This document shows, one piece after another, positions 4,552 to 40,143 of a stretch of DNA of 64,000 nucleotides (positions are counted from its first letter, which is position 1; each line of letters opens with the position of its first letter). This DNA comes from an uncultured virus (IMG/VR IMGVR_UViG_3300029305_010146) (lineage: Duplodnaviria; Heunggongvirae; Uroviricota; Caudoviricetes). Made by a program: the position numbers and the translations under genes. The DNA lies in IMG/VR virus record IMGVR_UViG_3300029305_010146; one strand, given 5' to 3'. The notes under the pieces were generated by a model that made no database searches, was not told the origin of the DNA, and saw nothing but the letters and a program-made list of their open reading frames with translations.

Positions 4552-5208
4552 ATGCAGACTAAATTAAGAAATATTATGTCTTCTAAAAAGGGTTTCACCC
4601 TCATTGAATTGCTCGTAGTTATCGGTATCCTTGCCGTTCTCGCTGCAATCGCAATTCCTTCCGTTGCTGGTCTTATCGACAGAGCAAATGTTTCTGCTGA
4701 CAAGACAAATGCTAACGAAATGACCAATGCCATCGAGCGCTTTACTTCCGAGTATGAGCTTTACTGCCAGGATATCGCTTCTGGTTGGAATGGCACCAAC
4801 CCAGACTCCGCACAGGGTCGTGTTAAGAATGTAATCGGTGCTACTACACGTGACCAGATTACCACTCTCGAAATTGCACAGGGTACAGACATTGATGCCT
4901 CCAAACTTCAGTTGTATAGAGACACCAAGTATCCTACCAACGAAAAGACTCTTGTAGAACTCGTGAAGAATTACACAAAGACTTCTTCCGCTACTTTCCA
5001 GCCAAAGCAGTCTGACTGCCACTTCTTCTACTCTCCAAAATGCGGTCTCGTTGTTGTTGCAGAGGCAGATTCTACTATTGCTCAACTCAACGACCTCGTA
5101 ATCTCTGGTATGGATGCAAAGGGTAATGCTCTTGATGACAACGACAAGAAACTTTGGATTGATATCTCTGATGCCGACACCACCAAGTATGTTGAGAAAA
5201 CTGCTTAA
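4552..5208 (+). CDS. Type IV pilin (probable major pilin, copy A)
   Basis: Class III signal KKG|FTLIELLVVIGILAVLAAIAIP. SD AAGGAG. Downstream terminator at ~5238-5266. Confidence 0.93.
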   Translation: MQTKLRNIMSSKKGFTLIELLVVIGILAVLAAIAIPSVAGLIDRANVSADKTNANEMTNAIERFTSEYELYCQDIASGWNGTNPDSAQGRVKNVIGATTRDQITTLEIAQGTDIDASKLQLYRDTKYPTNEKTLVELVKNYTKTSSATFQPKQSDCHFFYSPKCGLVVVAEADSTIAQLNDLVISGMDAKGNALDDNDKKLWIDISDADTTKYVEKTA

Positions 5209-5334
5209 TCTAACAGCATAAAATAAATTAAGTTATAAAAACCCGTATCGAGTCGATACGGGTTTTGTTTTGCCTTGACAAATTAAGTTTTTTGTTTTAG
5301 AATTGTTGCAATAGTTTATTAGGAGGCTAATAAA

Positions 5335-6051
5335 ATGACTTGCAAACAATGTGGTTATATCAATAACGAAAACAATATTTTATGTGATGCATGCGGTTCT
5401 CAATTGCAACCAACATCTTCGCATATCGTAACAAAAGAAAATAATAAAGAAACTACTTATAATTCTACATATTATGGAGAACAACAAAAGCAACAACCAT
5501 ATAATCCATATGCATCTGTACAACAAAGACCGTCTGCAACTGATTATCAAACCCAACAATATTACCAAAATGCATATGGACAAAGTCAGTATGGAAACAC
5601 TATGCTACGAAATAACCAGAATGCACTTCCTATGAATTTCCATATCGTATATTGTATACTTTTAGCATTTTCCGCTTTTTCCAGTTTAAGTAGCATTTTC
5701 TCTTCGATTGGTATCGAAGGTATGGAGTGGAGTTTTATAATTGGGTTATTGAATTTTGCATTTATGGGTGCAATGACCGTTACTATGTTTATGAGGAAAA
5801 AAATTGGTTATATCTTAAGATTGATTTATAACATTCTTCAATTAGCAGGTTCTGCCCTTCTAATAGTTATTTCTATTTGTGGTATTGCATATACTTTCAT
5901 CGACCCAACATTTTTTAATGCTGGCGAAGAGAGTCTTAATGGTTTGATGATTTTTATTTTTGTACTCATAATGATTTTTGCAATTCCTACTTTTATAATC
6001 AATATATTAATAATGAAGTATTATAAAAAAAGAAAAGAACTTTTCTCTTAA
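5335..6051 (+). CDS. Zinc-ribbon membrane protein (paralogue of 3690-4268)
   Basis: N-terminal CKQC...CDAC, a Q/Y-rich linker and about 4 TM segments. Confidence 0.8.
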   Translation: MTCKQCGYINNENNILCDACGSQLQPTSSHIVTKENNKETTYNSTYYGEQQKQQPYNPYASVQQRPSATDYQTQQYYQNAYGQSQYGNTMLRNNQNALPMNFHIVYCILLAFSAFSSLSSIFSSIGIEGMEWSFIIGLLNFAFMGAMTVTMFMRKKIGYILRLIYNILQLAGSALLIVISICGIAYTFIDPTFFNAGEESLNGLMIFIFVLIMIFAIPTFIINILIMKYYKKRKELFS

Positions 6052-6174
6052 ATAGTTGTTGACATTGATAATTATTTATGGTATAATATCCTCAAGATAA
6101 TTTCTTGAGGATATTTTATATTTATGTAACAATAAAAACGGTGTTATTAAATATAAAAATAAAGGAGGAATATT

Positions 6175-6636
6175 ATGTTTGAAAAAATTCATACACCAGC
6201 ATTTTTAAGAATTGGAGACCCAATGTATATTGACGAACCAACCCCTAATCGCAAGAAATATGTTTTAGAAAAAACATATCCTTCCGATTTTGTTTCTTCG
6301 ATGCAAATTACAAAGGGCGATGGTTCTGGGTGTGTACAGATTTTAATTTGTATTGCTCCCAACAGCGAGGCACTTTCTGTATATCAAAAAGAAGAGTATT
6401 ATTCAGCATTGCGAAGCGAAACAATCGAACTGGGTTGTGATACTGCTTGTTTTAGAATTGAAACAGATGAAAAAGACGACGAAATCTCGACTATGTCCGA
6501 CGGTTACTACGGTTTTGCAGTAAATCTTTTCTACGGAAACAAAAATTACGGTTCTATTATTTCTTTATCTATCGACGAAGATGTATACGACCAATCAACC
6601 GAAGATTCACTAAAATATGTATTTTATAAGGAGTAA
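6175..6636 (+). CDS. Hypothetical protein
   Basis: 153-aa ORF with SD AAGGAGG and an upstream TTGACA/TATAAT promoter. Confidence 0.75.
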   Translation: MFEKIHTPAFLRIGDPMYIDEPTPNRKKYVLEKTYPSDFVSSMQITKGDGSGCVQILICIAPNSEALSVYQKEEYYSALRSETIELGCDTACFRIETDEKDDEISTMSDGYYGFAVNLFYGNKNYGSIISLSIDEDVYDQSTEDSLKYVFYKE

Positions 6637-6641
6637 GAGAA

Positions 6642-7568
6642 ATGAAGATTAATATTAAGGAAATCACATCAAAGGTAAACGGCGAAAGTGTTTCTGGTGT
6701 CGTTTATGTCAAAAATGCAAACATCAATGTTGCAAAAAATGGCAAGAAGTACATCCAAGGTCTTCTAATTGACAATAAGGAAAGTATTTTCTACAAGGTC
6801 TGGGGAGACTATATGGAAGCATTCCAAAAGGTTAATGCGACATCGCAAATTCTCTACATCGAAGGTACCGTAAATGTATTTAACGATACAACTTCTATCG
6901 TAATCACAAAGGCAATGCCTTCTAATGAAGGTTTGACCCCTGCCGATTTCATTACTGGTCACGACAGAGATGCCCTTGAAAGAGAATTCTACGAAATCAA
7001 TAAGCGTCTTCTGTCCCCTAATGCTTACGACATTTTGAATGTTATTGTTAGAGATAAAGTTAAAGACCGTTTCTTCATGGAATATGCTGGCATGACAATG
7101 CACGATGCTTGCCCCAGCGGTGTAGCAAATCACACCGTTAAAATGCTTCGCATTCTTGAGACAATCATCAATAACGACCCTCGCCTCACACCGTGGACAG
7201 ACCTTTTGGTTCTTGGTGTTGATTTGCACGATGTCGGCAAAATTAAGGAAATGTACAATGGAAACTATCGCAAAAACTCCTTTGTTACACACAGAGAATT
7301 TGGAGTTGAATTACTGATGAATAACAAGGACTTTATTATATCTCAATTCAATGACGATTTCTATTATCGTCTTGTTTCCATTATTCGTGGGCATCACGAT
7401 GAATTTGAGGAAAAGGCAAAGACTGTATATGCATATATCACTTTTTTGATTGATATGCTTGATTCTCAAGTTTCTCATATTCTGGATTGTGTCGAAGCAG
7501 AAAATCTCAAAGAAGAATCTTCTGGCGACAGTTATATCCAATCTCACGACCACAAGTTGTATGTATAA
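6642..7568 (+). CDS. yhaM: YhaM/Cbf1-like 3'-5' exoribonuclease (OB fold + HD domain)
   Basis: N-terminal OB-like 'AKNGKKYI...KVW'. HD motifs MHDA...NHT, LHDVGKIKE, GHH and IDMLDS. Confidence 0.82.
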   Translation: MKINIKEITSKVNGESVSGVVYVKNANINVAKNGKKYIQGLLIDNKESIFYKVWGDYMEAFQKVNATSQILYIEGTVNVFNDTTSIVITKAMPSNEGLTPADFITGHDRDALEREFYEINKRLLSPNAYDILNVIVRDKVKDRFFMEYAGMTMHDACPSGVANHTVKMLRILETIINNDPRLTPWTDLLVLGVDLHDVGKIKEMYNGNYRKNSFVTHREFGVELLMNNKDFIISQFNDDFYYRLVSIIRGHHDEFEEKAKTVYAYITFLIDMLDSQVSHILDCVEAENLKEESSGDSYIQSHDHKLYV

Positions 7569-7615
7569 AAAATGCGGGAGAAAATCTCCCGCATACCAAA
7601 ATATAGGAGGTTATT

Positions 7616-8440
7616 ATGGCAAATAAAAAAGATTCATTGGGCGATAGAATGAAGTCCAATTACGAAAATAGAGCAAAAACTTATCTCGTTCGCAGACAAC
7701 CTGTAATTCTGCGACTTGACGGTAAGGCTTTCCACACTTTTACAAGAGGATTAAAGAGACCTTACGATGAAATCTTTCACAAGGCAATGAACGATACACT
7801 TATGACCCTTTGTGAAAATATTCAAGGTTGCAAAGTTGGTTATACACAGTCTGACGAAATTACCCTTCTTTTGACTGATTATGATACCCTAACTACCGAT
7901 GCTTGGTTTGACTATGCAGTGCAGAAAATGTGTAGTATCGCCGCTTCAACGGCAACCCTCGCATTCAATAAATCCCTCGCAAAAAGTGTTGATGACTTTT
8001 TCAATACCAAAATTTCTGGTGTTGAAGAGTTGTCTGCTGATAGCGAAGACTTTAAGTATTTCAAGACCCTTATGAAGGCAGTAAATACTGGTGCGATGTT
8101 TGATTGCCGTTGTTTCAATATTCCAAAAGAAGAGGTCGTAAACTGTTTCATTTGGAGACAGCAAGATGCAACAAGGAATGCAATTCAAATGCTTGGTCAG
8201 TGTAATTTTTCACACAAAGACCTAAATGGCAAATCTTGCAATGACATTCAAGATATGCTGATGGTGCAAAGAGGAATTAACTTTAACGATATGCCAACCG
8301 AATTTAAGAGAGGAGTCTGTTGTGTTCGCACAGAACAAGTATCAACTAACAGCACTACTCCTACGAGGATGAAGTGGACTATCGACAAAGAAATTCCAAT
8401 TTTTTCAAAAGATTTCAACTATATTGAAAAATATATTTAA
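7616..8440 (+). CDS. thg1: tRNA(His) guanylyltransferase Thg1-like protein
   Basis: RLDGKAFHTFT, YTQSDEITL, FDCR, WRQQDATRNAI and FKRG motifs. Confidence 0.93.
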   Translation: MANKKDSLGDRMKSNYENRAKTYLVRRQPVILRLDGKAFHTFTRGLKRPYDEIFHKAMNDTLMTLCENIQGCKVGYTQSDEITLLLTDYDTLTTDAWFDYAVQKMCSIAASTATLAFNKSLAKSVDDFFNTKISGVEELSADSEDFKYFKTLMKAVNTGAMFDCRCFNIPKEEVVNCFIWRQQDATRNAIQMLGQCNFSHKDLNGKSCNDIQDMLMVQRGINFNDMPTEFKRGVCCVRTEQVSTNSTTPTRMKWTIDKEIPIFSKDFNYIEKYI

Positions 8441-8447
8441 TTAACTA

Positions 8448-8476
8448 TTGACAAAAGGAAATCTTTGTGATATAAT
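8448..8476 (+). promoter_or_regulatory. Sigma-A-type promoter of tRNA-Gly
   Basis: TTGACA-N17-TATAAT with extended -10 TG. Confidence 0.8.
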
Positions 8477-8506
8477 ACGGATGCCAGCGAAAGTTGGCAT
8501 CTATAT

Positions 8507-8583
8507 GCGGGTGTAGTGTTTAACGGCCAGCATGCCTGCCTTCCAAGCAGGAGGTACGGGTTCGAATCCCGTTACTCGCTCCA
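8507..8583 (+). tRNA. tRNA-Gly(TCC)
   Basis: Cloverleaf; anticodon arm CCTGC-CTTCCAA-GCAGG; GGTTCGAATCC; encoded CCA. Confidence 0.95.
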
Positions 8584-8602
8584 AAAATTTTTTTAAAAAG
8601 TC

Positions 8603-8631
8603 TTGACAATTAGATTTTTTTATGTTATAAT
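8603..8631 (+). promoter_or_regulatory. Sigma-A-type promoter for the tRNA-Met/leader/tRNA array unit
   Basis: TTGACA-N17-TATAAT with extended -10 TG. Confidence 0.85.
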
Positions 8632-8638
8632 ACCATAT

Positions 8639-8714
8639 AGCGGGATAGAGCAGGTGGTAGCTCGTTTGGCTCATATCCAAAAGGTCGTTGGTTCGACTCC
8701 AACTCCCGCAACCA
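8639..8714 (+). tRNA. tRNA-Met(CAT), initiator-like
   Basis: CAT anticodon; unpaired A1:A72 and A11:U24 initiator features; CCA end. Confidence 0.88.
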
Positions 8715-8761
8715 GTGACGAAAGTCGCATATTAAATCTTGACAGAAAGGAAGTATTCAGT

Positions 8762-8869
8762 ATGACTGTTTACAATGCAATTCAAAAAATTCAACAGTGT
8801 AAACAAGTAGGCATGTTTAAGTTTATTAAACGTGTCCATTCGTCATGCCATGAATACAACCACTGTTAA
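8762..8869 (+). CDS. Putative 35-aa attenuator leader peptide MTVYNAIQKIQQCKQVGMFKFIKRVHSSCHEYNHC
   Basis: SD-like AAAGGAAG upstream. It lies in a structured leader before a terminator and is enriched in I/Q/K/C/V/M/F. Confidence 0.6.
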   Translation: MTVYNAIQKIQQCKQVGMFKFIKRVHSSCHEYNHC

Positions 8870-8934
8870 AGGTTACGTTCTGCCTGCAATATAAAACTGG
8901 TAGATTACGGTTAAAAATTTTTAACAAACAAGTA

Positions 8935-8976
8935 GCGGTTCTGTATCCATGGGATGCAGAACCGTTTTCTTTTTTT
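8935..8976 (+). terminator. Intrinsic terminator (candidate attenuator) immediately before the tRNA array
   Basis: GCGGTTCTGTATCC-ATG-GGATGCAGAACCGT followed by a long T tract, 4 nt before tRNA-Gln. Confidence 0.85.
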
Positions 8977-8980
8977 ACAT

Positions 8981-9056
8981 TGGGGTATCGCCAAGCGGTA
9001 AGGCACAGGACTTTGACTCCTGCATTCCGAAGGTTCGAATCCTTCTACCCCAGCCA
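8981..9056 (+). tRNA. tRNA-Gln(TTG)
   Basis: CAGGA-CTTTGAC-TCCTG arm; CCA end. Confidence 0.95.
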
Positions 9057-9061
9057 TATAT

Positions 9062-9137
9062 GCACCTGTAGCTCAGTTGGAAGAGCACTCGACTTTTAAT
9101 CGAGGAGTCATGGGTTCGAGTCCCATCAGGTGCACCA
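9062..9137 (+). tRNA. tRNA-Lys(TTT)
   Basis: CTCGA-CTTTTAA-TCGAG arm; CCA end. Confidence 0.95.
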
Positions 9138-9142
9138 AATAT

Positions 9143-9218
9143 GGAAAGGTAGCTCAACAGGTAGAGCAGTGGACTGAAAATCCACGTGTAGTCGGTTCGA
9201 CTCCGTCCCTTTCCACCA
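9143..9218 (+). tRNA. tRNA-Phe(GAA)
   Basis: GTGGA-CTGAAAA-TCCAC arm; CCA end. Confidence 0.95.
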
Positions 9219-9221
9219 TAT

Positions 9222-9295
9222 GGCGATGTCGTCAAGTGGTAAGACAGCAGTCTGCAAAACTGTTACCCCCAGTTCGAATCTGGGCATCGCCTCCA
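9222..9295 (+). tRNA. tRNA-Cys(GCA)
   Basis: GCAGT-CTGCAAA-ACTGT arm; U73 discriminator; CCA end. Confidence 0.93.
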
Positions 9296-9301
9296 CTCTA
9301 T

Positions 9302-9377
9302 GCATTCGTAGCTCAACTGGGAGAGCACTCGACTCTTAATCGAGGGGTCGTGGGTTCAAACCCCACCGAATGCACCA
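9302..9377 (+). tRNA. tRNA-Lys(CTT)
   Basis: CTCGA-CTCTTAA-TCGAG arm; CCA end. Confidence 0.95.
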
Positions 9378-9382
9378 AATAT

Positions 9383-9459
9383 ACACTCGTAGTTCAGTTG
9401 GTTAGAATACTTGCTTGACATGCAGGGGGTCGTTGGTTCAAGTCCAATCGAGTGTACCA
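9383..9459 (+). tRNA. tRNA-Val(GAC)
   Basis: CTTGC-TTGACAT-GCAGG arm; ACACTCG/CGAGTGT acceptor; CCA end. Confidence 0.92.
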
Positions 9460-9465
9460 TTATCT

Positions 9466-9541
9466 GCGACATTAGCTCAGTTGGCAGAGCACCGTGCTGA
9501 TAACGCGGGGGTCACTGGTTCAAGTCCAGTATGTCGCACCA
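9466..9541 (+). tRNA. tRNA-Ile(GAT)
   Basis: CCGTG-CTGATAA-CGCGG arm; CCA end. Confidence 0.94.
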
Positions 9542-9545
9542 ACAT

Positions 9546-9621
9546 GCAATATTAGCTCAGTAGGTAGAGCACCGTGCTGATAACGCGGGGGTCGTTGGTT
9601 CAAATCCAGCATATTGCACCA
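9546..9621 (+). tRNA. tRNA-Ile(GAT), second copy
   Basis: Same anticodon arm as 9466-9541 with a different acceptor stem (GCAATAT/ATATTGC); CCA end. Confidence 0.93.
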
Positions 9622-9697
9622 GCACCATTAACTCAACTGGTAGAGTGCTTCCCTTACAAGGAAGAAGTTATAGGTTCGAGTCCTATATGGTGTACCA
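9622..9697 (+). tRNA. tRNA-Val(TAC)
   Basis: CTTCC-CTTACAA-GGAAG arm; abuts the previous tRNA; CCA end. Confidence 0.93.
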
Positions 9698-9702
9698 TAT
9701 AT

Positions 9703-9778
9703 GCCACGGTAACTCAGTTGGTAGAGTATCGGCCTCATATTCCGAAAGTCAGCAGTTCGAACCTGCTCCGTGGTACCA
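9703..9778 (+). tRNA. tRNA with CAT anticodon (elongator Met or Ile2)
   Basis: TCGGC-CTCATAT-TCCGA arm; paired 1:72; CCA end. Confidence 0.88.
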
Positions 9779-9782
9779 ACTT

Positions 9783-9858
9783 GGGAAGATAGCAAAGATG
9801 GTCTATGCAACGGACTGAAAATCCGAGGATACTGGTTCGATACCAGTTCTTCCCACCA
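9783..9858 (+). tRNA. tRNA-Phe(GAA), divergent second copy
   Basis: CGGA-CTGAAAA-TCCG arm; GGGAAGA/TCTTCCC acceptor; CCA end. Confidence 0.88.
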
Positions 9859-9893
9859 AAAAGCATTGGATTAAATCCAATGCTTTTCTTTTT
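9859..9893 (+). terminator. Terminator of the tRNA array
   Basis: AAGCATTGGAT-TAA-ATCCAATGCTT plus T tract. Confidence 0.85.
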
Positions 9894-9960
9894 CTATTGA
9901 CATTTGCAGTAAAATATATTATTATATTATATAACATTTAACATTTAAGGAGTGAAATAA

Positions 9961-11280
9961 ATGCAAAATAACTCTAAAAATAATATTCCTTTTGAAGAAG
10001 AGTTACATGCTGACAATATTGACACCAAAAAAATCGATGAATGGGCAATGTGTTATGAAAACTCTCCAGAAGAAGACGAACAAGAGCGAAAAATGGAAGA
10101 GGAATATAAACAGCAACGCAAAGAAGCACTAAAAACACTGTTTAAAACACCAAAATACAAAAGCAAAAAAACACAAAGAAATGCCTTTGTTCTAAAAGTT
10201 ACGATTTTAGCAATGCTATTATCTCTTGCTTTCGGCACATGTGGTGCTTATCTTTACACACATTATATTGGTGGTGCTATAACGGTTCAAAGGGGCGATG
10301 TAACAATAAATGTCGTTGAAAAAAATGACCCACCAACTTTAGAAAACTACGACCCCAATTCAATTCCATCCGTTGTTGCTAAAACAGAAAACAGTGTTGT
10401 TGCTATCACGACAAACACCATTTCCAAAAACCCAATGATAGGCCAATACATTCAAGAAGGCGCAGGTAGTGGTGTAATTATTTCAGAAGATGGTTATATC
10501 ATCACGAACACACATGTGATTAGTGAAGCGACAAGCATTATTGTCAGACTACACAATGGTCAAGAATACACTGCTTCTATTGTTGGTTCGGATATAACAA
10601 CTGACATAGCGGTGATTAAAATTGAAGTAAAAGGTTTGTCTCCGATTGTTTTCGGAGATTCCAAAAACATTGTGGTTGGACAGACGGTTATCGCAATTGG
10701 TAATCCACTTGGCGAGTTAGGAGGAACTGTTACTTCTGGTATTATCTCTGCAAAAGATAGAGAATTAACAATCAATAAGCAAAATATGAATTTACTTCAG
10801 ATTTCTGCCGCAGTAAACCCTGGCAATTCTGGTGGTGGATTGTTTAATTTAGATGGCGAATTAGTAGGAATTGTAAATGCTAAAAATTCTGATGTAGGTA
10901 TCGAAGGACTTGGTTTCGCCATTCCCGCAAACGATGCACAAGATGTTGCCAAACAACTAATTGAAAATGGCAAAGTCACTGGGCGTCCACAATTAGGCAT
11001 TTCTGTTGTTGAAATTTCCAACACGGCAGAAATTTACAACTATGTATCTGACCCAATTTATCCATATTTAGATACAACGGGCCTTTATGTAATTGATGCC
11101 ACAACCCCACACTTATTCCTTGGCGATAAGATTATTGCAATTGATGGTCAATCGATGGATACTTATGACGACCTTAAAGATTACATCAATACGAAAAAGG
11201 TCGGAGATACAGTTTCCGTTACAATTTCCAGAAGCAAACAAATTCAAACATTAACCATTGAACTTACAGAAAAACCTTGA
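9961..11280 (+). CDS. htrA: HtrA/DegP-like serine protease with PDZ domain
   Basis: TM anchor; GSGVII, TNTHVI, DIAVIK and GNSGGGL triad motifs; C-terminal PDZ. Confidence 0.95.
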   Translation: MQNNSKNNIPFEEELHADNIDTKKIDEWAMCYENSPEEDEQERKMEEEYKQQRKEALKTLFKTPKYKSKKTQRNAFVLKVTILAMLLSLAFGTCGAYLYTHYIGGAITVQRGDVTINVVEKNDPPTLENYDPNSIPSVVAKTENSVVAITTNTISKNPMIGQYIQEGAGSGVIISEDGYIITNTHVISEATSIIVRLHNGQEYTASIVGSDITTDIAVIKIEVKGLSPIVFGDSKNIVVGQTVIAIGNPLGELGGTVTSGIISAKDRELTINKQNMNLLQISAAVNPGNSGGGLFNLDGELVGIVNAKNSDVGIEGLGFAIPANDAQDVAKQLIENGKVTGRPQLGISVVEISNTAEIYNYVSDPIYPYLDTTGLYVIDATTPHLFLGDKIIAIDGQSMDTYDDLKDYINTKKVGDTVSVTISRSKQIQTLTIELTEKP

Positions 11281-11445
11281 TTTTAAGTGCCACATTTTGT
11301 GGCACTTTTTCTATTGACATTATTATAAATCTATGGTATAATAACAACAAAGAAAATATTTTTTGAAGTTTTTATTTTGTTATTATACAATATTTATATC
11401 TTTATATAAATTTATAAGGAGAAATTTCATAAAGGAGGAAGATAT

Positions 11446-12468
11446 ATGAAAGATATTATCCAAAGACCAGAATATGACTTTTTCAGAACAAATCCCGACA
11501 TTTGTGATAAGGTTTTATTGCTGACATATGGCGGAAGTATCGCCTATGGCACAAACAATGAAAATTCCGATACCGATATCCGTGGTGTTTGTCTCAACAG
11601 AAAAGAAGATATTCTCGGTTTCAACGAAATGCACCAGTTCGAACAATTTATTGACCCAATAACCGATACTGTAATTTATTCTTTGAATAAATTAACAAGA
11701 TTGCTTATTTCGTGCAACCCAAACACAATTGAAATTCTTGGTTGCCGTCCCGACCATTATCACATGGTCAATAAGTACGGTCAAATGTTGCTCGACAACA
11801 AAGAATTGTTTTTATCTCAAAAAGCAGTTAATTCTTTTTCTGGTTATGCAAGACAGCAATTGGCACGTCTCGAAAATGCCTTGGCGCGAGATAGACTTGC
11901 TCAAAGCAAAAAAGAAATGCACATCCTTAATGCTTGCCAATCAACAATTGACGCTTTTGAAAAAAGATATTCTTTTAACCCAGCAAAATTCATTGAACTT
12001 GTGTTGATGGACTCTGAAAAAGAAGATTTTGACAAAGAAACTTTCGTTAACGTCACTCTGCATAACGTTCCTTTGAGAGAATTTGCTGGTATGGCAGCAG
12101 ACCTTGCGAACGTTGCAAAATGTTATGATAAACTAAATCACAGAAATAGCAAAAAAGACGACAATCATCTCAACAAACATGCAATGCACCTTGTTCGTCT
12201 TTATTTGATGGGCATTGATATCTTGGAAAAGGCTCAAATCGTAACCTATCGTGCCGACGACATTCCTGAATTGATGGGTATTCGTAACGGAAAATATCAA
12301 AAAGAAGACGGAACTTATTACGATGAATTTTTTGAAATGGTCAACGAGTATGAAAAGCGTATCCAATATGCCGCAAAACATACTGTTTTGCCGCCTGAAC
12401 CAGACTATAAAAAGATTCACGAAATGATTTCTGAAATCAACTATCTTACTGTTGTAGATAGAATTTAA
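11446..12468 (+). CDS. Pol-beta-superfamily nucleotidyltransferase (RlaP/YcgL-like)
   Basis: GGSIAYGTNNENSDTDIRG (GS...DxD), NPNTIEIL and KHAMHLVRL motifs. Confidence 0.85.
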   Translation: MKDIIQRPEYDFFRTNPDICDKVLLLTYGGSIAYGTNNENSDTDIRGVCLNRKEDILGFNEMHQFEQFIDPITDTVIYSLNKLTRLLISCNPNTIEILGCRPDHYHMVNKYGQMLLDNKELFLSQKAVNSFSGYARQQLARLENALARDRLAQSKKEMHILNACQSTIDAFEKRYSFNPAKFIELVLMDSEKEDFDKETFVNVTLHNVPLREFAGMAADLANVAKCYDKLNHRNSKKDDNHLNKHAMHLVRLYLMGIDILEKAQIVTYRADDIPELMGIRNGKYQKEDGTYYDEFFEMVNEYEKRIQYAAKHTVLPPEPDYKKIHEMISEINYLTVVDRI

Positions 12469-12482
12469 GGAGGAAAGTATTT

Positions 12483-13433
12483 ATGAAAATAACACCAGCA
12501 TTAAGAGAAAGATTTTGCAAAGATTTGCAACTTCCTATCAAAATTTTCACTGACCCGTATTTTATGGAAAGACTCGTGCTTTATGACATTCACTTTGGAT
12601 GTTGGGAGAAATATATTGATTTCGAAAAGATGCTCGAAGATTATGCAGATGAACAAGAATACTTCGAAGCATACAATTCGTTAAAAGAAACGGTTATTCA
12701 ATATTTATTAAATAACCCAGATTTCACATTCTTTTCCCAAACGGAAGACATGTCCAAATTTACAATTCCAAATCGAAGTTTGCCCAAAAACTCAATTTAT
12801 AAGCAAACTATGGTAGGAAAGCACTTTGTAAGTTTTGATTTGTGTAAAGGTAATTTTACAGCACTTCATCATTATAACGAAAAGATTTTTGACGGTGCTC
12901 ACACCTATGAAGAATTTTTATCAAAATTTACAAACAACAAACACTTTATCGAAAGCAAATACATTCGTCAAGTGATTTTTGGCACAGTTAACCCAAAGAG
13001 ACAAGTTCGCTACGAAGAGTATCTTATGAATCAAGTTCTTGATGTCATATTAGAAAAATTCGCAATAGAGAAAATTGCCTACTTTTCAACAGACGAAATC
13101 GTTGTGGAGTTGGATGAAAAATTATCTGAAACATCAGAACTATATGCCTTTATTTCGAACACTGTAAATCATTTTATTGATAACGGAATTACCCTCCGTG
13201 CAGAAGTCTTTGAATTAGACTATATCAAAGAATATGATACCTACATCAAAAAGGTATATTGCAAAATGTTCCAGTCCAGTGGCGATGCAATCAAAAAAAG
13301 CGAGTTGTTGGTTATTAAAAATGCAACAAATCTAACAATGCCTTTTGTACTCCGCCATTTGTATAAGTTACCTCCTAACGAAAACGATAATGTTTTTATT
13401 CATGAAGGTAGACTTGCCAAGTTTATCGAATAA
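12483..13433 (+). CDS. Hypothetical protein, possibly a divergent palm-domain polymerase/nucleotidyltransferase
   Basis: Strong SD; directly downstream of the nucleotidyltransferase; acidic motifs SFDLCKGNF and FSTDEIVV. Confidence 0.6.
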   Translation: MKITPALRERFCKDLQLPIKIFTDPYFMERLVLYDIHFGCWEKYIDFEKMLEDYADEQEYFEAYNSLKETVIQYLLNNPDFTFFSQTEDMSKFTIPNRSLPKNSIYKQTMVGKHFVSFDLCKGNFTALHHYNEKIFDGAHTYEEFLSKFTNNKHFIESKYIRQVIFGTVNPKRQVRYEEYLMNQVLDVILEKFAIEKIAYFSTDEIVVELDEKLSETSELYAFISNTVNHFIDNGITLRAEVFELDYIKEYDTYIKKVYCKMFQSSGDAIKKSELLVIKNATNLTMPFVLRHLYKLPPNENDNVFIHEGRLAKFIE

Positions 13434-13509: not shown

Positions 13510-13770
13510 TGTATATAGTAATATATACATCTAATGCCCATTTTTATGTATGCTTTTATAGCATGCCAAACAGGTTTTGAAATTTAGCCCGAAAATTTCA
13601 TATGAATCGATAATTCTGCACAGAACCGATTTGAAAAGTGTGCTTGTTGTGGAATAACCGCAAACACAACAATATCAGTTTGTGACCGCAAACTGGCGGT
13701 ATGCATTTATGGCGAATTGGTCATTCGCCTTGCATGATTCCAACTTTCGAAAGAAAGTTGGAATTTTTTT
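13510..13770 (+). ncRNA. Candidate multi-hairpin small RNA
   Basis: TTGACT-N17-TAAAAT at 13475-13503, six or more hairpins, terminator TTCCAACTTTC-GAAA-GAAAGTTGGAA-T7, and no ORF with an SD. Confidence 0.6.
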
Positions 13771-13972
13771 CTTTTTAATACTTGACTTTTTAATTTTATT
13801 TGTTTATTCTATATGAGGTTGAGCAAAAAGCCCAACAAAATATAAATTATAAAAATTTCTTTCAAATACTTGACAAAGAAAATTTTATATATTATATTTT
13901 CAATACAGCAACGGTAAAACACCCGTTGCGAAATTAAAACATAAAAGAAATTTTTAAAAGGAGTGTTTTACA

Positions 13973-14647
13973 ATGCAGACAAAATTAAGAAATATTATGT
14001 CTTCTAAAAAGGGTTTTACCCTTATCGAATTGCTCGTAGTTATCGGTATCCTTGCCGTTCTCGCTGCAATCGCTATCCCTTCCGTTGCTGGTCTTATCGA
14101 CAGAGCAAATGTTTCTGCTGACAAGACAAATGCTAACGAGATGACCAATGCCATCGAGCGCTTTACTTCCGAGTATGAACTCTACATTCAGGACATCAGC
14201 TCTGGTGCTCTTGATTTTGACAAGCTCGATTCTGCACAGGGTCGTGTAAAGAATGTTATTGACACTGGTGCAACCGATGAGACTTCTCGTGACGACATCA
14301 CTGCCCTCGAAATCGCGCAGGGTGGTACTGTTGACCACACCAAGGCACAGTTGTACAGAGACACCAAGTATCCTACCAACGAAAAGACTCTCGCCGAAGT
14401 TGTAAAGAACTACACAAAGACTTCTTCCGCTACTTTCCAGCCAAAGCAGTCTGACTGCCACTTCTTCTACTCTCCAAAATGCGGTCTCGTTGTTGTTGCA
14501 GAGGCAGATTCTACTATTGCTCAACTCAACGACCTCGTAATCTCTGGTATGGATGCAAAGGGTAATGCTCTTTCCGACACTGACACAACTCTTTGGATTG
14601 ACATCTCTGATGCTGCTACTGACACTTATGTCACAAAAACTGCTTAA
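13973..14647 (+). CDS. Type IV pilin (probable major pilin, copy B)
   Basis: First ~70 aa identical to 4552-5208; class III signal; duplicated upstream region. Confidence 0.93.
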   Translation: MQTKLRNIMSSKKGFTLIELLVVIGILAVLAAIAIPSVAGLIDRANVSADKTNANEMTNAIERFTSEYELYIQDISSGALDFDKLDSAQGRVKNVIDTGATDETSRDDITALEIAQGGTVDHTKAQLYRDTKYPTNEKTLAEVVKNYTKTSSATFQPKQSDCHFFYSPKCGLVVVAEADSTIAQLNDLVISGMDAKGNALSDTDTTLWIDISDAATDTYVTKTA

Positions 14648-14848
14648 TTGTTGATATAATATTTTAATCCAAACTTAAACCCGCACAATGTGCGGGTTTA
14701 TTTTTTATTCTTGACATTTTCACATCATAATTCTATAATTTTCTTAATTTAACCAAAACCTTGACAATAGGTTTTTATTGTGTTATAATTACATATAAAA
14801 CAAATTTACGTATTCTTATAAAAAGATGCGATTAAGGAGTTGATTTTA

Positions 14849-16827: not shown

Positions 16828-17880
16828 ACACTTCTCGTAAGAGAGTGATTGGTAGTCACCACCAAGTTCGAAAGAACATAATGCGCTTCGGCGGTCTGCT
16901 GGGAACAGACGTGAATATCGCTGGAAACAGCGATTGTTTTTGTCTGCGGAAACAAAGGCAAAAACCTATGTCGCTTTAAGCGACAAATGTTCGCAACGGT
17001 CTCGTCCGCAAGGATGCTGCCAAGTACGAGCAAACTTGCTCGAAAGAGCAATTGATAAGTTCTCGCAAGAGTTAAACTTATCCAGATGTCTTTTAACCGA
17101 CATCTCGCTACCTTCGGTAGCAAAAAAGAGTTTCGATTTCAAAACTCTGTTCTCTTACAGAAGGTGTGAAAACACCTGTCGTGTTTAACACTCGATGTTT
17201 TAGAACGAAGCGATTTGCAGAAATCGGTTTTGTACAAACCAGCGGAAATCTCCATTCCACTACCCAAGTTCATTTTTGCGACGGCGAAACAGAACATAGC
17301 AAATTCTGATGAACAACGGAGAAAAATCATAAAACAATTGCCGTTAATGTTCAGTTTTATGTTGTATTAAAAACTCGGTGCAGAGAACCTTTGTCGGGTT
17401 GCCGAGGCATATTGAATGATGTGTTGCTTCTGATAAGGATTACTTTTTAGGGGACAACATCCGAAGTGCAGCGATGCAGTTCGGAAAGACGGAAACCGTC
17501 AATATCAAGATATGTCGCTCTCTCTTTTCGCTAACAAACACACAGTTCTTGTGGCGACAACAATTGACGCTCTCGGTGAGAGAATAAACCTGCAAGTGTC
17601 GTGGTGGAACACGGTAGACTACAGGAAATCCAAAACAATGTCGTTTGCAGTGAAGCGAAGAAATTCGCGTATAACACAAGTTTATGGTCAAAGTAGCCCA
17701 ATGCAACAATTAAAGAAATTAAGTATTTAATTATTCAAATTAAAAAATTCTTTGAATTATAAAAACTTGCCGAAAGATGGGTGAAATGTGCGAGTAATCA
17801 GTCTCGTATGAGCATTATGGAACTTCGGTTCAAGACAAATAGCCAAGGGTCGCTCCCAAACGCTCGGATTTGCCTTCTCA
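16828..17880 (+). ncRNA. Large structured ncRNA, GOLLD-like (tentative)
   Basis: No credible ORF; GC higher than flanks; many GNRA/UUCG-capped hairpins. The 3' blocks (GGTGAAA...GAGTAATCAGTCTCG, AGCCAAGGGTCGCTCCC) resemble GOLLD as I recall it; unverified. Confidence 0.6.
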
Positions 17881-17964
17881 TTAGTGTAATATGTTAGAAG
17901 TTAAGAGATAGTAAGATGAAAGTCTTCTAATACAACATAAAACTGAACATTAGCATCAAAAAGC

Positions 17965-22812: not shown

Positions 22813-22909
22813 CATTAAATCCGAGACAATATTGTCTCGGATTTTTTCATTGACAAGAAAAAAAAATCATTTATGCTATGTTTAATACAAATGAAAGGAA
22901 TGATTTTTC

Positions 22910-24190: not shown

Positions 24191-24206
24191 TTAAATTATT
24201 ACAACA

Positions 24207-24243
24207 AAATACCCATTGTCTCAATGTGAGACAATGGGTATTT
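24207..24243. terminator. Perfect 17-bp hairpin (bidirectional terminator / possible DGR target hairpin)
   Basis: AAATACCCATTGTCTCA-ATG-TGAGACAATGGGTATTT between convergent genes. Confidence 0.8.
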
Positions 24244-24252
24244 ATTTTTATT

Positions 24253-28994: not shown

Positions 28995-29075
28995 GCATTT
29001 TTCTTGATAATAAAATGCTTTTATCTCATAATTTTAATATCACTTTATGTGAAAAAATTAGAAGGAGGATATTTT

Positions 29076-29696
29076 ATGAACACAAATCCCATTAAAGACA
29101 GTGGCGACCGCACAAATTTCGATTCTGGAGCAGTACGCGATTTAAGAGTTGGCAAGGGACGAATGGACCTTGTGCCTCTCGACATCGCAAACTTCCTAAT
29201 CAATTATGCCCCCACTACCCCTTTCCGTATCGAGCGGGAAAATCACCCTGTTGACTACACTCTCTGCAACATGGATGAATTTATCTACAATGGTAGCGAC
29301 ACCGCAATGGTTGCTGCGATGTACGATATGATTCTTCATTCTGATGTGTTTGTCGATGCATATCTGGAAACCGCAAAAGAACTCGAAGTGGAGGTTGACC
29401 TCGATAAGGTTACCGCACGAGAACTGGTTGCAAATGCAATTCTTGTTTGTTCCAGACATTTCGAAAACGGCACACTCAAGTACGGAGAGCGAAACTGGGA
29501 AAAAGGAATGCCCGTACATGTCTATGTTGACAGCGGAGCGAGGCACTATGTCAAAATGCTCGCTGGTTTCATGGATGAACCACATCATCTCGCAGCATTG
29601 TGGAATATGATGTGTGCACAGTGGACTTTCCAGCGCCGAAAAGACCTGAATGATTTACCTTGTGGTAAATCTTCGAATGAAAAAGCATTCAAGTAA
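29076..29696 (+). CDS. dATP/dGTP diphosphohydrolase domain (DUF5664-like) protein
   Basis: FDSGAVRD...KGRMDLVP, GTLKYGERNWEKG, ARHY and HHLAALWN motifs. Confidence 0.8.
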   Translation: MNTNPIKDSGDRTNFDSGAVRDLRVGKGRMDLVPLDIANFLINYAPTTPFRIERENHPVDYTLCNMDEFIYNGSDTAMVAAMYDMILHSDVFVDAYLETAKELEVEVDLDKVTARELVANAILVCSRHFENGTLKYGERNWEKGMPVHVYVDSGARHYVKMLAGFMDEPHHLAALWNMMCAQWTFQRRKDLNDLPCGKSSNEKAFK

Positions 29697-34370: not shown

Positions 34371-34530
34371 TAATTAACATAAAAACAGAATTCACCAAAA
34401 TGGATTCTGTTTTTTTGCTTGACTTTTTCGGAAAATACTTTTAATATTATAATACAATCATAATTTTGTTATTAAGCGATAAACATTCGCTTCCAAAACA
34501 TAAAAACATTCGAAACGGAGGCAACATTTT

Positions 34531-35073: not shown

Positions 35074-35177
35074 TACAAAACCAAGAACTTTCGTTCTTGG
35101 TTTTTTATTTTCTATTGACTTTTACATCGTTTTGTTATAAAATATACATCAATAGCGATTATTGGAGGTGTTAAAAA

Positions 35178-35855: not shown

Positions 35856-35897
35856 ACATTAAAAAGCAGATTATCTTATGATAATCTGCTTTTGCTT

Positions 35898-36797: not shown

Positions 36798-36881
36798 AGA
36801 AAGACCCCCTGCTTTTTTCTTTTTATTATAACACAAAATATAACCCATGTCAACAGAAAAAATCCGTCAGTTTGACGGATT

Positions 36882-37238: not shown

Positions 37239-37407
37239 ATAATTATCTCCTTCCTATATTTTTATAGAATTATTATATCACAACCATTAAATTTTGTCAA
37301 CATTAAACATATTTTTAACTTTTTTAGCATTCCGCTTGAAAAAAAAGAAAAAATAACTTACCTTTTCGCTATTAGAAAAAACTTAAAAAAGAAAGGTTGA
37401 GATTATT

Positions 37408-38433
37408 ATGAAAAAATTTAACTATAAATCCCGTAAGGGTTTTACTTTAATTGAACTTCTCGTAGTTATTGGCATTCTTGCAGTGCTTGCTGCTATTGCT
37501 ATTCCTTCGGTTGCAGGTCTTATTGACAGAGCAAATGCATCGGCAGATAACACCAATGCCAATGAAATGACAAATGCTATGGAGAGATTCGTAAGTGAGT
37601 ACGAACTTTATAAACAAGATATCGCATCTGGTGCAATCAAGGATGGAGATGGTGACGGTGTACCAGACAACATGGATGCTGCACAAGGTCGTGTGTATAA
37701 TGTTACCAAAGCGGTCACCCGTTCCGACATTGAAAAACTCGAAAGTTTGGCAGGCTTCAACGGTATTCGCATCGATATTGACAATAAGTATGCACAAAAC
37801 CATGAAACTGCAAAAGCGGTTATGCAAAATTATATGAAGACAAGTTCATCCACTTTCGAACCAAAACAAAGCGATATGACTTATTGGTACAACACAGTTA
37901 CTGGTTATACTGTTGTTGCAGAAAAATATGTAAATACAGAAACACTATATCTCAAATTGCCCACAGAAGTAAGATATGAAGGCACTACATATGCATCTGT
38001 ATCAGAATGGATTGACCTATCTTCTGATTTTATCATTCCAGATTGCAGAATATATGAAATTACCGCTGGCATATCCCCGAATAGCGGCGAAGAAGCAATT
38101 ATATATAGATGGGAAGTACCAGACCCCGATTATAATGCTAACATTAATTTTGACAACATTTTCTATATGTGCAACAGAGCAGAAAATGGAATATTAAGTT
38201 TTGATAACTATGCACACAAACATTCAATAAACGAAGCACTTAATGGCAAACCGTTCAGCAAAGATGGAGATGTCGTAAGATTTAATGGTTATATAACATT
38301 TTCAACTTCTAACGACCCAACAATAAGAGTGCAATTGCGTCTATGTTTCAGATATAATGATAATGGCACTATAAGATATGCTTATTCGCCAGTATTTGAG
38401 ACATCACTTCAGGAACTAAAGGGTATCAACTAA
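37408..38433 (+). CDS. Type IV pilin with a distinct C-terminal extension domain
   Basis: RKG|FTLIELLVVI. Shares the module to ...KTSSSTFEPKQSD...WID, then has an unrelated ~135-aa tail. Confidence 0.9.
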   Translation: MKKFNYKSRKGFTLIELLVVIGILAVLAAIAIPSVAGLIDRANASADNTNANEMTNAMERFVSEYELYKQDIASGAIKDGDGDGVPDNMDAAQGRVYNVTKAVTRSDIEKLESLAGFNGIRIDIDNKYAQNHETAKAVMQNYMKTSSSTFEPKQSDMTYWYNTVTGYTVVAEKYVNTETLYLKLPTEVRYEGTTYASVSEWIDLSSDFIIPDCRIYEITAGISPNSGEEAIIYRWEVPDPDYNANINFDNIFYMCNRAENGILSFDNYAHKHSINEALNGKPFSKDGDVVRFNGYITFSTSNDPTIRVQLRLCFRYNDNGTIRYAYSPVFETSLQELKGIN

Positions 38434-38634
38434 AAATTATGACAACAAACCCAAAAGAGCATCTGTTAATCAGACGCTCTTTTTTTTGCACTAATTTTAC
38501 CGTTATTAACCACCACCCTCCCATCAACCACAAACCACCCACTTTTCCTCCATAACCCACAAAAAATTAAATATGTACTACTCCCGCCAAACAACTTACA
38601 GCCCTTCATCAACTGCTCCTTAATTCACACATCT

Positions 38635-38652
38635 CCCTCCCACCCCACCCCC
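38635..38652 (-). other. Canonical G-quadruplex motif GGGGG-T-GGGG-T-GGG-A-GGG
   Basis: The plus strand reads CCCTCCCACCCCACCCCC, giving four G runs of 3 or more with 1-nt loops on the minus strand. Confidence 0.7.
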
Positions 38653-39075
38653 TCGTCATTATGTTGTAAAAGACTCTAATATATAACAACATAATCCCAT
38701 ATATAATATCGCAATATATAAAACATAAGAATAAAATAATACAAAAATATAGACACAACAACTATCTAATAATCTCCCAATATACCAATATATAAAAAAC
38801 AATTAAGAACTCGTATAATTAACGAAGAATATTAGAGGCCAATAATAAGCAAGAGTATAAGTGACTAAATAAGCAAATAAACAGAAAACCACAAATAAAG
38901 AAAAAACAATTATAGGCAAACCAATATATGCAAATAAATACTAACAACAAACAAATAATAATCTAATCAAAGTCAAAACAATACTGATAAATATCTAATA
39001 TAAAACATAAAGTACAAAACGAACTTTTATACAAATAAAAACAGAGGACACTTTAAAAGCATCCTCTGTATATTT

Positions 39076-39984
39076 TTATAGGTCTTTCATATACAGGAAA
39101 ACATCCCCATAAGAAGTATCATATTGTTTTATCTGTTCACCACCATTTATGACATCGCCAAAATTATAACCTTCATTTTTGATATTGCTTCCAGAATATG
39201 AATAAGTACCAGTAGGATTATCGCTTTCTGTTACTTCTATAAACTCGCCTGCTTCATTATATTCTTCTGCAAAGAATTTAGAACTACCATCACCATAGAA
39301 GATATATATTACTCGGAACTTTTTATTTTCGTCTGTACTACTTGTAAGCAATGCACCCTCATAGCGAAGACCATATCTTACAATATCTCCATTAGATATG
39401 TTTAACCACACAGTGTCTTCTGTTAATTCATTACCGTTTCCATCTGTGTTGTTTTTCAGATGCTCATTCAGTTGTTTAACAGAACTCTTTTCTTTTGCAC
39501 AGATTACTGTTCCGCTTTCTGGTGCATACCAGTAAAGATAGTTGGACTGTTGGGTGGTAAGAATTTCAGAAGAAGATTTAAGGTAAGTTGTTAAAACCTT
39601 TTTGATTGTTTTATAGTTAGCAGGATGATTAGAGTTTGCTTTTAGTTTAATACCGTCTAATCCCTCTTCGCTTTCTATAAGTTTAATGTCTTCTATATTA
39701 TCTGTTTGTATAATGTTATATACACGACTTTGTACTGTATCTAAATTATCTGTATCTATTTTGTTTTCTAATAGGTCTTTCTTATATAACTCGTATTCTG
39801 ATGTAAACTGTACTATTGCATTATTGATTTCGCTTACATTGGCATTATCGGCAGTTTGATTAGATTTGTTAATTAGTCCCGCAACCGTTGGTATTGCTAT
39901 GGCGGCGAGTACTGCCAAAATTCCAACTACAATGAGAAGTTCTACAAGGGAGAAACCTTTGCGGGATAACAATGACTTATTCAT
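39076..39984 (-). CDS. Divergent type IV pilin with C-terminal extension
   Basis: RKG|FSLVELLIVVGILAVLAAIAIP; SEYELY, QSRVYN and YWYAP homology to the other pilins; SD AAGGAG. Confidence 0.9.
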   Translation of the reverse strand: MNKSLLSRKGFSLVELLIVVGILAVLAAIAIPTVAGLINKSNQTADNANVSEINNAIVQFTSEYELYKKDLLENKIDTDNLDTVQSRVYNIIQTDNIEDIKLIESEEGLDGIKLKANSNHPANYKTIKKVLTTYLKSSSEILTTQQSNYLYWYAPESGTVICAKEKSSVKQLNEHLKNNTDGNGNELTEDTVWLNISNGDIVRYGLRYEGALLTSSTDENKKFRVIYIFYGDGSSKFFAEEYNEAGEFIEVTESDNPTGTYSYSGSNIKNEGYNFGDVINGGEQIKQYDTSYGDVFLYMKDL

Positions 39985-40143
39985 AGAGCATACTCCTTTC
40001 GTGAGTTGTAAGGAAAGTATAGGAGAAATTATTGGCAATTGCAAGTGATTATTTTATTTTTTGTGAGTTGTGGAGTGTAAGGTGGGCGGAATGTTGCTTT
40101 TTGCAAAAAGAAAGAAACCCGCCTTTTGGCGGGTTTCCCTATT

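Follow-up and report, generated by a model that had tools for sequence, protein, structure and literature searches.

A dispersed family of type IV prepilin genes with one conserved body and exchangeable C-terminal tails

Why would one replicon carry several complete genes for the same type IV prepilin body, two of which stop where the body ends while the others run on into unrelated domains? This question is raised by IMGVR_UViG_3300029305_010146, a 64,000-nucleotide stretch filed in IMG/VR as an uncultured virus (hereafter the window, meaning this whole stretch), which holds five such genes: paralogues 1 to 4 (P0001 to P0004) and paralogue 5 (P0005), the minus-strand gene. An original prediction, made from the letters of the window, regarded them as pilins with interchangeable C-terminal cargo, displayed by an element-encoded pilus as a switchable set of adhesins. 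We found that the five genes belong to a large family with a common body, purifying selection on its helix α1, a sharp junction just past the body, and many tail classes that have been exchanged between bodies. We consider it reasonably probable that this is a type IVa pilin gene family on one major-pilin-like body, the long forms of which polymerise with the short forms and display several binding heads.

Five prepilin genes with one shared body

All five genes were intact, and their predicted coordinates were confirmed. Paralogue 1 (4552-5208, +) is a short-form prepilin of 218 amino acids, in which the leader MQTKLRNIMSSKKG is followed by FTLIE and the body ends with WIDIS and 12 further residues; paralogue 2 (13973-14647, +), also a short form, has 224 amino acids and 87% identity to paralogue 1. 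Paralogue 3 (22910-24190, +; 426 amino acids), paralogue 4 (37408-38433, +; 341 amino acids), and paralogue 5 (39984-39076, −; 302 amino acids) are long forms, with pilin bodies encoded at 22910-23512 (+; residues 1-201, ending with WIDLT), 37408-38031 (+), and 39385-39984 (−), respectively; the last is the most divergent body, with 40% identity to paralogue 1. The start of paralogue 5 is likely the ATG at 39984, and the TTG at 40044 taken from the list of open reading frames (ORFs) lies upstream of it. A five-way alignment contained 62 invariant columns within the first ~205 residues, with identities to P0001 of 87, 65, 52, and 40%, and the body end was marked by an invariant Trp (W-I-D-L-T; position 202 in P0001). 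P0001 and P0002 finish 16-17 residues past this Trp, as had been expected for two genes that stop at the body end, and P0003, P0004, and P0005 extend 102-225 residues past it. The sequence motifs first quoted for the family were exact in four of the five genes; the minus-strand gene reads FSLVELLIVVG, VQSRV, and YLKSSSEILTTQQS instead.

The N-terminal features are those of type IV prepilins. A class III signal was present in all five proteins, in which KG is followed by F(T/S)L(I/V)E, that is, Gly at −1, Phe at +1, and Glu at +5; paralogue 5 carries FSLVEL where the other four carry FTLIEL. A degenerate back-translation of FTLIEL hit four of the five genes and one chance site with a single mismatch (expected number, 0.91), and none of 100 shuffles reached five. 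All five proteins passed the Pfam N_methyl cut-off (27.1-36 bits versus 21.2), the four paralogues scored with TIGR02532 gave 28.5-33.5 bits against a cut-off of 16.3, and start codon, leader, and Shine-Dalgarno sequence were complete in each gene. The NCBIfam profile for Myxococcus xanthus-type PilA (PilA_Myxo) aligned over residues 12-193 of P0001 with an E value of 6.1e-14, and the five-paralogue profile matched the α1 helix of solved pilins. AlphaFold2 (AF2) models had the corresponding shape: P0003 (48-row alignment; mean predicted local distance difference test score [pLDDT] of 85.9) was modeled with a helix at residues 12-72 and a head, and P0004 (44-row alignment) with a helix at residues 14-74 and a small mixed head, with pLDDT values of 85-95 over body residues 10-205 and of 80-95 for the heads of both models.

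The shared body is old and constrained. At codons 14-71, the proportion of synonymous differences (pS) was 0.47-0.93 and that of nonsynonymous differences (pN) was 0.04-0.21 for every window pair except paralogues 1 and 2, which had a pS of 0.185 and a pN of 0.000 there and a pS of 0.359 beyond α1. Synonymous sites are thus near saturation with α1 scarcely changed, and therefore these genes are old duplicates under purifying selection and not products of recent conversion. The constancy of the body fits subunits that share one assembly machine and one helical lattice.

The genes had also been described as separate transcription units, and promoter and terminator consensus sites indeed flank genes 1, 2, 3, and 5 singly, with only a weak promoter match for gene 4. 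Paralogue 1 has a promoter-like site, TTGACA-17-TATTAT, at 4450-4478 and a terminator-like hairpin at 5238-5266; paralogue 2 has a promoter-like site at 13870-13898 between terminators at 13736-13765 and 14676-14700. A terminator (22817-22844) and then a promoter-like site (22850-22877) precede paralogue 3, which is followed by a hairpin with a 17-bp stem (24207-24243, +). The hairpin is probably a terminator and could alternatively be the target hairpin of a diversity-generating retroelement (DGR). The gene upstream of paralogue 5 ends at a terminator at 40140-40111, and paralogue 5 has its own at 39069-39041. No Rfam riboswitch was found upstream of any of the five. The leaders of paralogues 1 and 2 (4484-4566 and 13904-13987, +) share GNAAAACACCCG, which can pair with the ribosome-binding-site region GGAGUGUUUUAC; the 5′ untranslated regions are dissimilar in fold, the predicted fold hiding the ribosome-binding site in paralogue 2 (z −3.36) and not in paralogue 1 (z −1.58). 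Long antisense ORFs lie inside both genes (4564-5085, −, 173 amino acids; 13985-14524, −, 179 amino acids) and are probably by-products of codon usage.

Exchange of tails across the family

The best 120 of 1598 near-length matches and the best 120 of 289 longer matches were all 59-88% identical to P0001 across at least 85% of its length. Anchoring on the Trp kept 243 of 248 proteins (five without the Trp were dropped), namely, 45 short forms and 198 long forms with a tail of at least 50 residues. The 198 tails, which reach 442 residues, fell into 28 classes defined as BLASTP components. The biggest component, a leucine-rich-repeat (LRR)-like set of 100, is probably heterogeneous, and the second comprises 48 DUF6273 tails; the P0005 tail shares a component with those of four other pilins, and the P0004 tail is a singleton. 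Pfam domains in the tails were DUF6273 (48), LRR_5 (24), Hint-type (5), and DUF285 (4) among the 120 longer matches, and dockerin (4) and LRR_5 (4) among the 120 near-length matches; most of the remaining tails belong to no family, the 35 representatives scanned giving only N_methyl or subthreshold matches. The predicted adhesin cargo is borne out insofar as several of these domains are of binding types (C-type-lectin-like DUF6273, BspA-type LRR, which we take to be IPR026906, DUF285, and dockerin); the accompanying statement that it is element-encoded and switchable is not, as described below.

Tails have moved between bodies. Bodies with 95-97.5% identity bear different tail classes, as in P0206 (LRR class) and P0222 (DUF6273), whose bodies are 97.5% identical, or in P0098 and P0114, with bodies 96% identical and equal contig sizes. 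The closest body bears another tail class for 92 of the 243 proteins, and in all five near-identical-body pairs inspected the identity ended 1-8 residues past the Trp. A FastTree phylogeny of the bodies required 72 tail-class changes, against a possible minimum of 28 and against 123-131 in the first five of 200 shuffles of the labels; this tree is weakly resolved, and we gave more weight to the pairwise result. The central claim of the original prediction, one conserved body with swappable C-terminal cargo, is upheld by the 28 classes, the different tails on near-identical bodies, and the sharp junction after the Trp.

The family is also larger than the five genes first claimed. For P0001, P0003, P0004, P0138, P0140, P0195, P0220, P0232, and P0237, the longest contig reported has one and the same size, 678,911 bp. 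Because these nine proteins report an equal contig size, at least 11 paralogues appear to lie on one contig when the two other window genes are counted, at least six of them outside the window. A further 17 contig sizes were common to two or three of the listed members (three, for example, on a 20,918-bp contig), and multi-copy sets are therefore usual in the family.

Scattered gene copies that agree in the N-terminal part and differ in the C-terminal part recall Neisseria pilE/pilS, where antigenic or phase variation rewrites one expressed locus by gene conversion. The lower pS of paralogues 1 and 2 in α1 than in the rest of the gene, and the pair of 96%-identical bodies in one contig elsewhere (P0098 and P0114), would suit such a system. 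The pilS copies of Neisseria, however, are silent and 5′-truncated, and the variation lies inside the pilin head, whereas none of the five genes here is incomplete, promoter-like consensus sites precede four of them, what varies is a domain added past the body, and synonymous sites are saturated in most window pairs. A tblastn search of the window with the 198 tails and the shared body found no promoterless or 5′-truncated cassette and no orphan tail; it matched only complete genes, the operon pilins, and a Hint-domain ORF at the window edge. In the regions upstream of the five genes, which the repeat search covered, there were no inverton-like repeats, all palindromes present being AT-rich or belonging to terminators, and the Pfam scan of window ORFs placed no recombinase family adjacent to them. 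We regard variation of the pilE/pilS type as hardly probable at all. More generally, the switchable part of the prediction is not supported: each copy has its own start, leader, and likely promoter, and neither promoterless cassettes, inverton-like repeats, nor recent conversion was found for the window copies.

A constant part, a short junction motif, and many unrelated exchanged modules are also known from polymorphic toxins, in which CdiA (VENN) and Rhs (PxxxxDPxGL) proteins pair a constant delivery part with exchanged C-terminal modules past a junction motif. The likeness extends to a pretoxin-HINT-type domain on some family members. Unlike those of the toxins, the tails here are binding domains, and the window yielded neither an immunity-like cassette nor an orphan tail.

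The size of the tails bears on what the long forms do. They might not polymerise at all, the class III signal and α1 serving as an export signal and membrane anchor or allowing a pseudopilus-like release of binding domains. Archaeal sugar-binding proteins with pilin-type signals act as anchored surface binders; a tail that can reach 442 residues would be bulky on a subunit of the shaft, and dockerin and Hint tails would serve on a cell-anchored protein too. An anchor, however, would have no need of the entire ~200-residue head, which is conserved (62 invariant columns in the window, bodies up to 97.5% identical across tail classes), and the junction always falls at the end of the pilin fold. 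We therefore judge this anchoring or release role to be unlikely and prefer the assembly of long and short forms into one fibre.

The window tails and a hypervariable stretch

The three tails in the window are unrelated, as had been proposed: they showed no pairwise similarity (BLASTP E values of 0.64, 3.3, and 33) and consist of DUF6273 (P0003), an orphan domain of 133 amino acids (P0004), and a domain of ~100 amino acids (P0005). P0003 has a modular-pilin architecture of body, low-pLDDT linker, and DUF6273, in which the linker (23519-23539, +; residues 204-210) has pLDDT values below 50 between two confident domains and the tail (23540-24190, +) is modeled at a pLDDT of ~95. DUF6273 (PF19789) was assigned with 77.6 bits against a cut-off of 23.5 (E 1.4e-21). 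The closest solved fold was residues 32-283 of 9qa6, the DUF6273 N-terminal domain of a Thomasclavelia ramosa IgA peptidase (Foldseek E 8.5e-6; VIA Z 15.3, 167 residues aligned, rmsd 2.6). Further VIA matches were the C-terminal domain of Legionella Lcl (Z 7.6), the Bacteroides ovatus fimbrial protein 4eps (Z 7.3), the DGR variable protein TvpA of Treponema denticola (2y3c; Z 6.7), and many C-type-lectin-like domains (Z ~5-5.8), values of 5-6.7 being middling on VIA's own scale. The P0003 tail can thus be modeled confidently as a C-type-lectin-like domain, and the same fold was assigned to phage DUF6273 proteins that are DGR targets in a published analysis (PMC10743442). In the phage collection, only the DUF6273 part of P0003 was matched, by three Faecalibacterium phage records with 28-30% identity.

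The other two tails, of 133 and 102 amino acids, carry no database signature. The P0004 tail (38032-38433, +; pLDDT below 50) has a single homologue, itself a pilin, with 80% identity; the low-confidence model of this tail matched unnamed β-rich domains among the Atlas structures with TM-scores of 0.53-0.73, which are only leads to β-rich accessory domains. The P0005 tail (39076-39384, −), also found on four other pilins, weakly matched repeated units in giant adhesin-like proteins as well as two further pilins. A different kind of tail stands at the window edge: an ORF at 2-1321 (+), open at the window start and at least 439 amino acids long, ends in a Hint or bacterial-intein-like domain with 40-42% identity over 144-164 amino acids to the Hint tails of the family pilins P0196, P0168, and P0214. 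It may be a sixth paralogue with its pilin body upstream of the window, and pilin-X-Hint proteins of this sort could undergo C-terminal self-cleavage or ligation.

The DUF6273 tail contains a hypervariable stretch that resembles the variable region of a DGR (24065-24169, +; residues 386-420), where column entropy was highest, between fixed framework residues. Nine homologues had 77-89% identity to P0003 over tail residues 211-385 and 37-54% over residues 386-420, the exception being P0139, which is identical to P0003 across the latter. At the 23 hypervariable positions of P0003, 22 codons were NNY (Fisher p 5e-4 versus the rest of the gene) and 12 ended in C, compared with 18% gene-wide (p 1e-4). 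Among close homologues, 148 of 157 substitutions in the stretch were NNY-accessible, versus 232 of 274 in the framework (p 0.002), and across all 47 homologues the counts were 948 of 1036 and 3274 of 4182; as the homologue rows are related to one another, the p values for hypervariability are optimistic. This DGR-like signature, drawn from codons and alignments, is a lead.

Its counterpart was not seen nearby. The 64-kb window contains no second copy of 23900-24190 that could be a template repeat (the best other match was 16 nt), and a Pfam scan of 54 window ORFs found no RVT family for a DGR reverse transcriptase, although ORFs shorter than 80 amino acids and some overlapping ORFs were left unscanned. 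We also compared assembled Logan contigs, which break at the repeated pilin body, with the window. The contigs of three runs showed no variation in the stretch, being identical to the window at 24062-24573 (X1), 24062-24571 (X4), and 23872-24456 (X7), but contigs drop rare variants and the runs may belong to one campaign. The contigs of the bovine-gut run X10 covered the paralogue-4 tail at a low level, an observation on which we place no reading. The P0003 tail probably shares the fold class of DGR-diversified adhesins such as TvpA, the phage tentaclins, and the DUF6273 targets (PMC10743442), has a C-terminal stretch with NNY-codon hypervariability like theirs, and differs from them in that no template repeat or reverse transcriptase was found in the window and no variation in the compared contigs. 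Bacteroides type V pilus adhesins are likewise diversified by DGRs, according to a preprint whose text does not contain the term "type IV" (PMC11601372). It is possible, if rather doubtful, that the family is an adhesin cassette system with W-x-x-x-T as its exchange junction and, in addition, that its DUF6273 heads are hypermutated by a DGR elsewhere in the genome. If so, the family would provide the first example of a type IV pilus with a DGR-diversified displayed binding site and two layers of variation per fibre; if the signature is confirmed, type IV pili would join the tail fibres of phages and the type V pili of Bacteroides as structures subject to targeted hypermutation.

The candidate fibre, its replicon, and its significance

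The dispersed genes lie 19-55 kb from a pil operon at 59395-63949, in line with the predicted distance from pilD and pilM. The operon encodes the prepilin peptidase PilD (59395-60174, +; Peptidase_A24, 51 bits versus 26.5), four pilin-like proteins (60285-62933, +) with the N-termini KKGYTLVELL, KKGTVLTEAL, KKGMTLAELL, and KKGYTLMYTL, and a PilM-like assembly protein (62912-63949, +; PilM_2, 27.4 bits versus 27). The first operon pilin (60285-61019, +) matched both N_methyl and Dockerin_1, has a C-terminal type I dockerin, and shows 26.6% identity to the shared body over 173 amino acids. The four are likely minor pilins; together they resemble the minor pilins that prime type IVa systems, and the dispersed family therefore provides candidate major-pilin genes. 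Four dispersed-family members (P0045, P0085, P0088, and P0121) also end in a dockerin, which, together with the dockerin of the operon pilin, suggests that the pili may dock cohesin-bearing proteins.

In the fibre that we favour, the short forms (paralogues 1 and 2) would most likely be the main pilus subunits, and a long form would consist of that polymerisable body extended, just past W-x-x-x-T, by a short flexible linker and a ligand-binding module. Each gene would supply its own leader for processing by the window-encoded PilD and would probably be expressed from its own promoter, and the long forms would enter the same fibre via the same machinery; they should join it because helix α1 and the head are kept as in the short forms. 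The resulting pilus would bear C-type-lectin-like, LRR, dockerin, and β-rich heads along with a putative adhesive role, and new specificities would arise over evolutionary time by recombination that swaps everything past the Trp junction.

Several observations weigh against this proposal or limit it. Its support consists of sequences and models. Fold searches with the P0004 model (Foldseek and VIA) matched only the α1 helix of solved pilins, with a Foldseek probability of 0.72 over 52 columns and no VIA Z of 5 or higher for the shared body, so that the head fold is a model feature, unconfirmed by a solved counterpart beyond α1; the PilA_Myxo match of 52.5 bits is far under the 400-bit cut-off. 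Genes for an assembly ATPase and a platform protein were not seen in the window. The number of paralogues outside the window rests on the equal size of 678,911 bp and not on sequence read, and metagenome assembly may have created some of the pairs with near-identical bodies as chimeras; P0139, from a contig of 1.9 kb, is chimera-like, with a front as in P0140 and a back as in P0003. Lastly, bulky C-terminal modules may not fit in a pilus shaft, and the authors of work on Streptococcus sanguinis modular pilins favour a tip position (PMC8179133).

The pilus had further been attributed to a mobile element, and a conjugative plasmid, an integrative and conjugative element, or a huge phage might encode it and switch its tails for target choice, as the PilV shufflon of R64 does. 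An array of 13 tRNA genes, an ROOL RNA, and genes for Thg1-like, RlaP-like, and PIN-PhoH2 proteins lie nearby, with strong PHROG matches; Pfam assigns no family to about half of the 54 scanned ORFs; two peptide patterns did not find the close family in GTDB species genomes; and some Atlas clusters with N_methyl and DUF6273 carry viral labels, based on two members. Against this, NCBIfam equivalog cut-offs were exceeded by SecA (1115.7 versus 814), RecD2 (648.6 versus 500), and signal peptidase I (126.9 versus 47), and the window also encodes HtrA, MscS, a MacB-like transporter, and an RpoD-like sigma factor below its cut-off. No relaxase, type IV secretion system, capsid, portal, or terminase family, and no phage structural gene, was found among the scanned window ORFs, and 40 ORFs compared with PHROGs matched none of the capsid, portal, terminase, or tail families, the only match of that kind being an M23 peptidase domain to tape-measure and endolysin families. 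SecA matches in records labelled "phage" appear to be host DNA and were set aside as uninformative on the replicon. The G+C content of the window is 29-40%. The family was not found in IMG/VR, every tail sits in its own complete gene, and no shufflon-like or inverton-like repeats were seen upstream of the five genes. We consider a mobile-element origin highly improbable, and the element-encoded part of the original prediction is not supported; the replicon is more likely a chromosome, although this is not proven. Conjugation or immune evasion as a role is speculation.

The shufflon remains a useful comparison for the fibre proposed here. PilV of R64 and ColIb-P9 is a type IVb conjugative pilin adhesin whose alternative C-terminal segments set the target and are rearranged by Rci within one gene. 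Both systems have a pilin-like adhesin with alternative C-terminal parts; unlike PilV, the family described here has one complete gene per tail and type IVa-like pilins, with no inverted repeats found upstream of the five genes and no recombinase or relaxase among the scanned ORFs. In logic, its organisation resembles the PilV shufflon or the loci of polymorphic toxins; the mechanism differs.

Several other loci of the window deserve mention. A cluster at 6642-13433 (+) contains genes for an HD-domain protein, a Thg1-like tRNA-His guanylyltransferase (PHROG E 5e-91), HtrA, an RlaP-like nucleotidyltransferase, and an unknown ORF, as well as the 13 tRNA genes (8507-9858), and looks like a tRNA repair or supply island as in large phages. 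A full-length ROOL RNA (17350-17944, +; 340 bits versus 99.1, model positions 1-574) occupies a gene-poor stretch downstream of the tRNA array. The ORF at 29004-29696 (+) encodes the N-terminal domain of dATP/dGTP diphosphohydrolases (PHROG 18716, E 3e-41), and that at 42511-43905 (+) a PIN-PhoH2 RNA helicase (PHROG 2765, E 9e-108); both types are common in phage genomes and stand here among housekeeping genes. The region 44068-53560 (+) holds unknown ORFs together with signal peptidase I (46074-46676) and a transglutaminase-core protein (46793-47344), followed by a 1782-amino-acid protein without a Pfam, NCBIfam, or PHROG family, and could be another secreted fibre or surface-protein locus.

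Searches of public data place the family in animal guts. For the P0003 region, 97% of the sampled words were present in six animal-faeces metagenome runs of one year, from which the window may come. The X10 contigs were ~90-96% similar to the flanking housekeeping genes (71-154 differences per 767-2,626 bases), and therefore a related organism was present in that bovine gut. A single-protein scan of GTDB species genomes gave no match, and an alignment scan detected four true relatives, all in metagenome-assembled genomes (MAGs) of uncultured Clostridia, one of which is labelled Acutalibacteraceae; each MAG has one full-length copy, with 46-50% identity in the scan and 47-52% in a further comparison, and the genomes with a match numbered 1 of 401, 2 of 201, and 1 of 201 in the samples. 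A close multi-copy lineage was found neither in the GTDB species genomes searched nor in IMG/VR, where the scan gave only generic pilin N-termini, as did the metagenome scan among the matches listed. In the four MAG relatives (L002 / G002:C121, G003:C1), the short-form homologue lies near pilin-like ORFs of 749-1104 amino acids that match in the N-terminal helix only; we regard these as giant modular pilins on other, unrelated pilin bodies.

Modular pilins as such are already known. S. sanguinis has PilB, with a von Willebrand factor A module and demonstrated adhesion, and PilC, with a lectin module, and the accompanying survey counts more than 1,200 modular pilins in 264 architectures, with IPR026906 among the 15 commonest extra domains (PMC8179133). 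The proteins described here likewise join a pilin module to an extra C-terminal module; they differ from the pilins of that paper, whose main text does not use the terms "paralog," "same species," or "several modular," in being many paralogues of one genome on a single selected body, to which at least 28 tail classes are joined at a common, sharp junction. S. sanguinis also builds a heteropolymeric pilus from two major pilins, PilE1 and PilE2 (PMC10628169), and paralogues 1 and 2, at 87% identity, could by inference co-polymerise in a similar way. A literature search, which covered few subscription journals, found no paper on this organisation or on a DGR-targeted type IV pilin. What is new is a multi-paralogue family on a single body that selection has kept, with a common junction and frequent tail exchange.

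The usual picture of a type IV pilus has one major subunit and a few specialised minor pilins, and the modular pilins known so far come from single genes, each with a pilin module of its own. Here, at least 11 copies of a major-pilin-like body appear to be present in one organism, most of them with different binding domains. The Trp junction would be a natural engineering site for display on pili, and the dockerin tails of some members are a hint that pili may be connected with the cohesin-bearing surface complexes of fibre-degrading gut bacteria. If the long forms enter the fibre, a gut anaerobe would build a multi-specific adhesive filament and evolve its specificities by domain swap.

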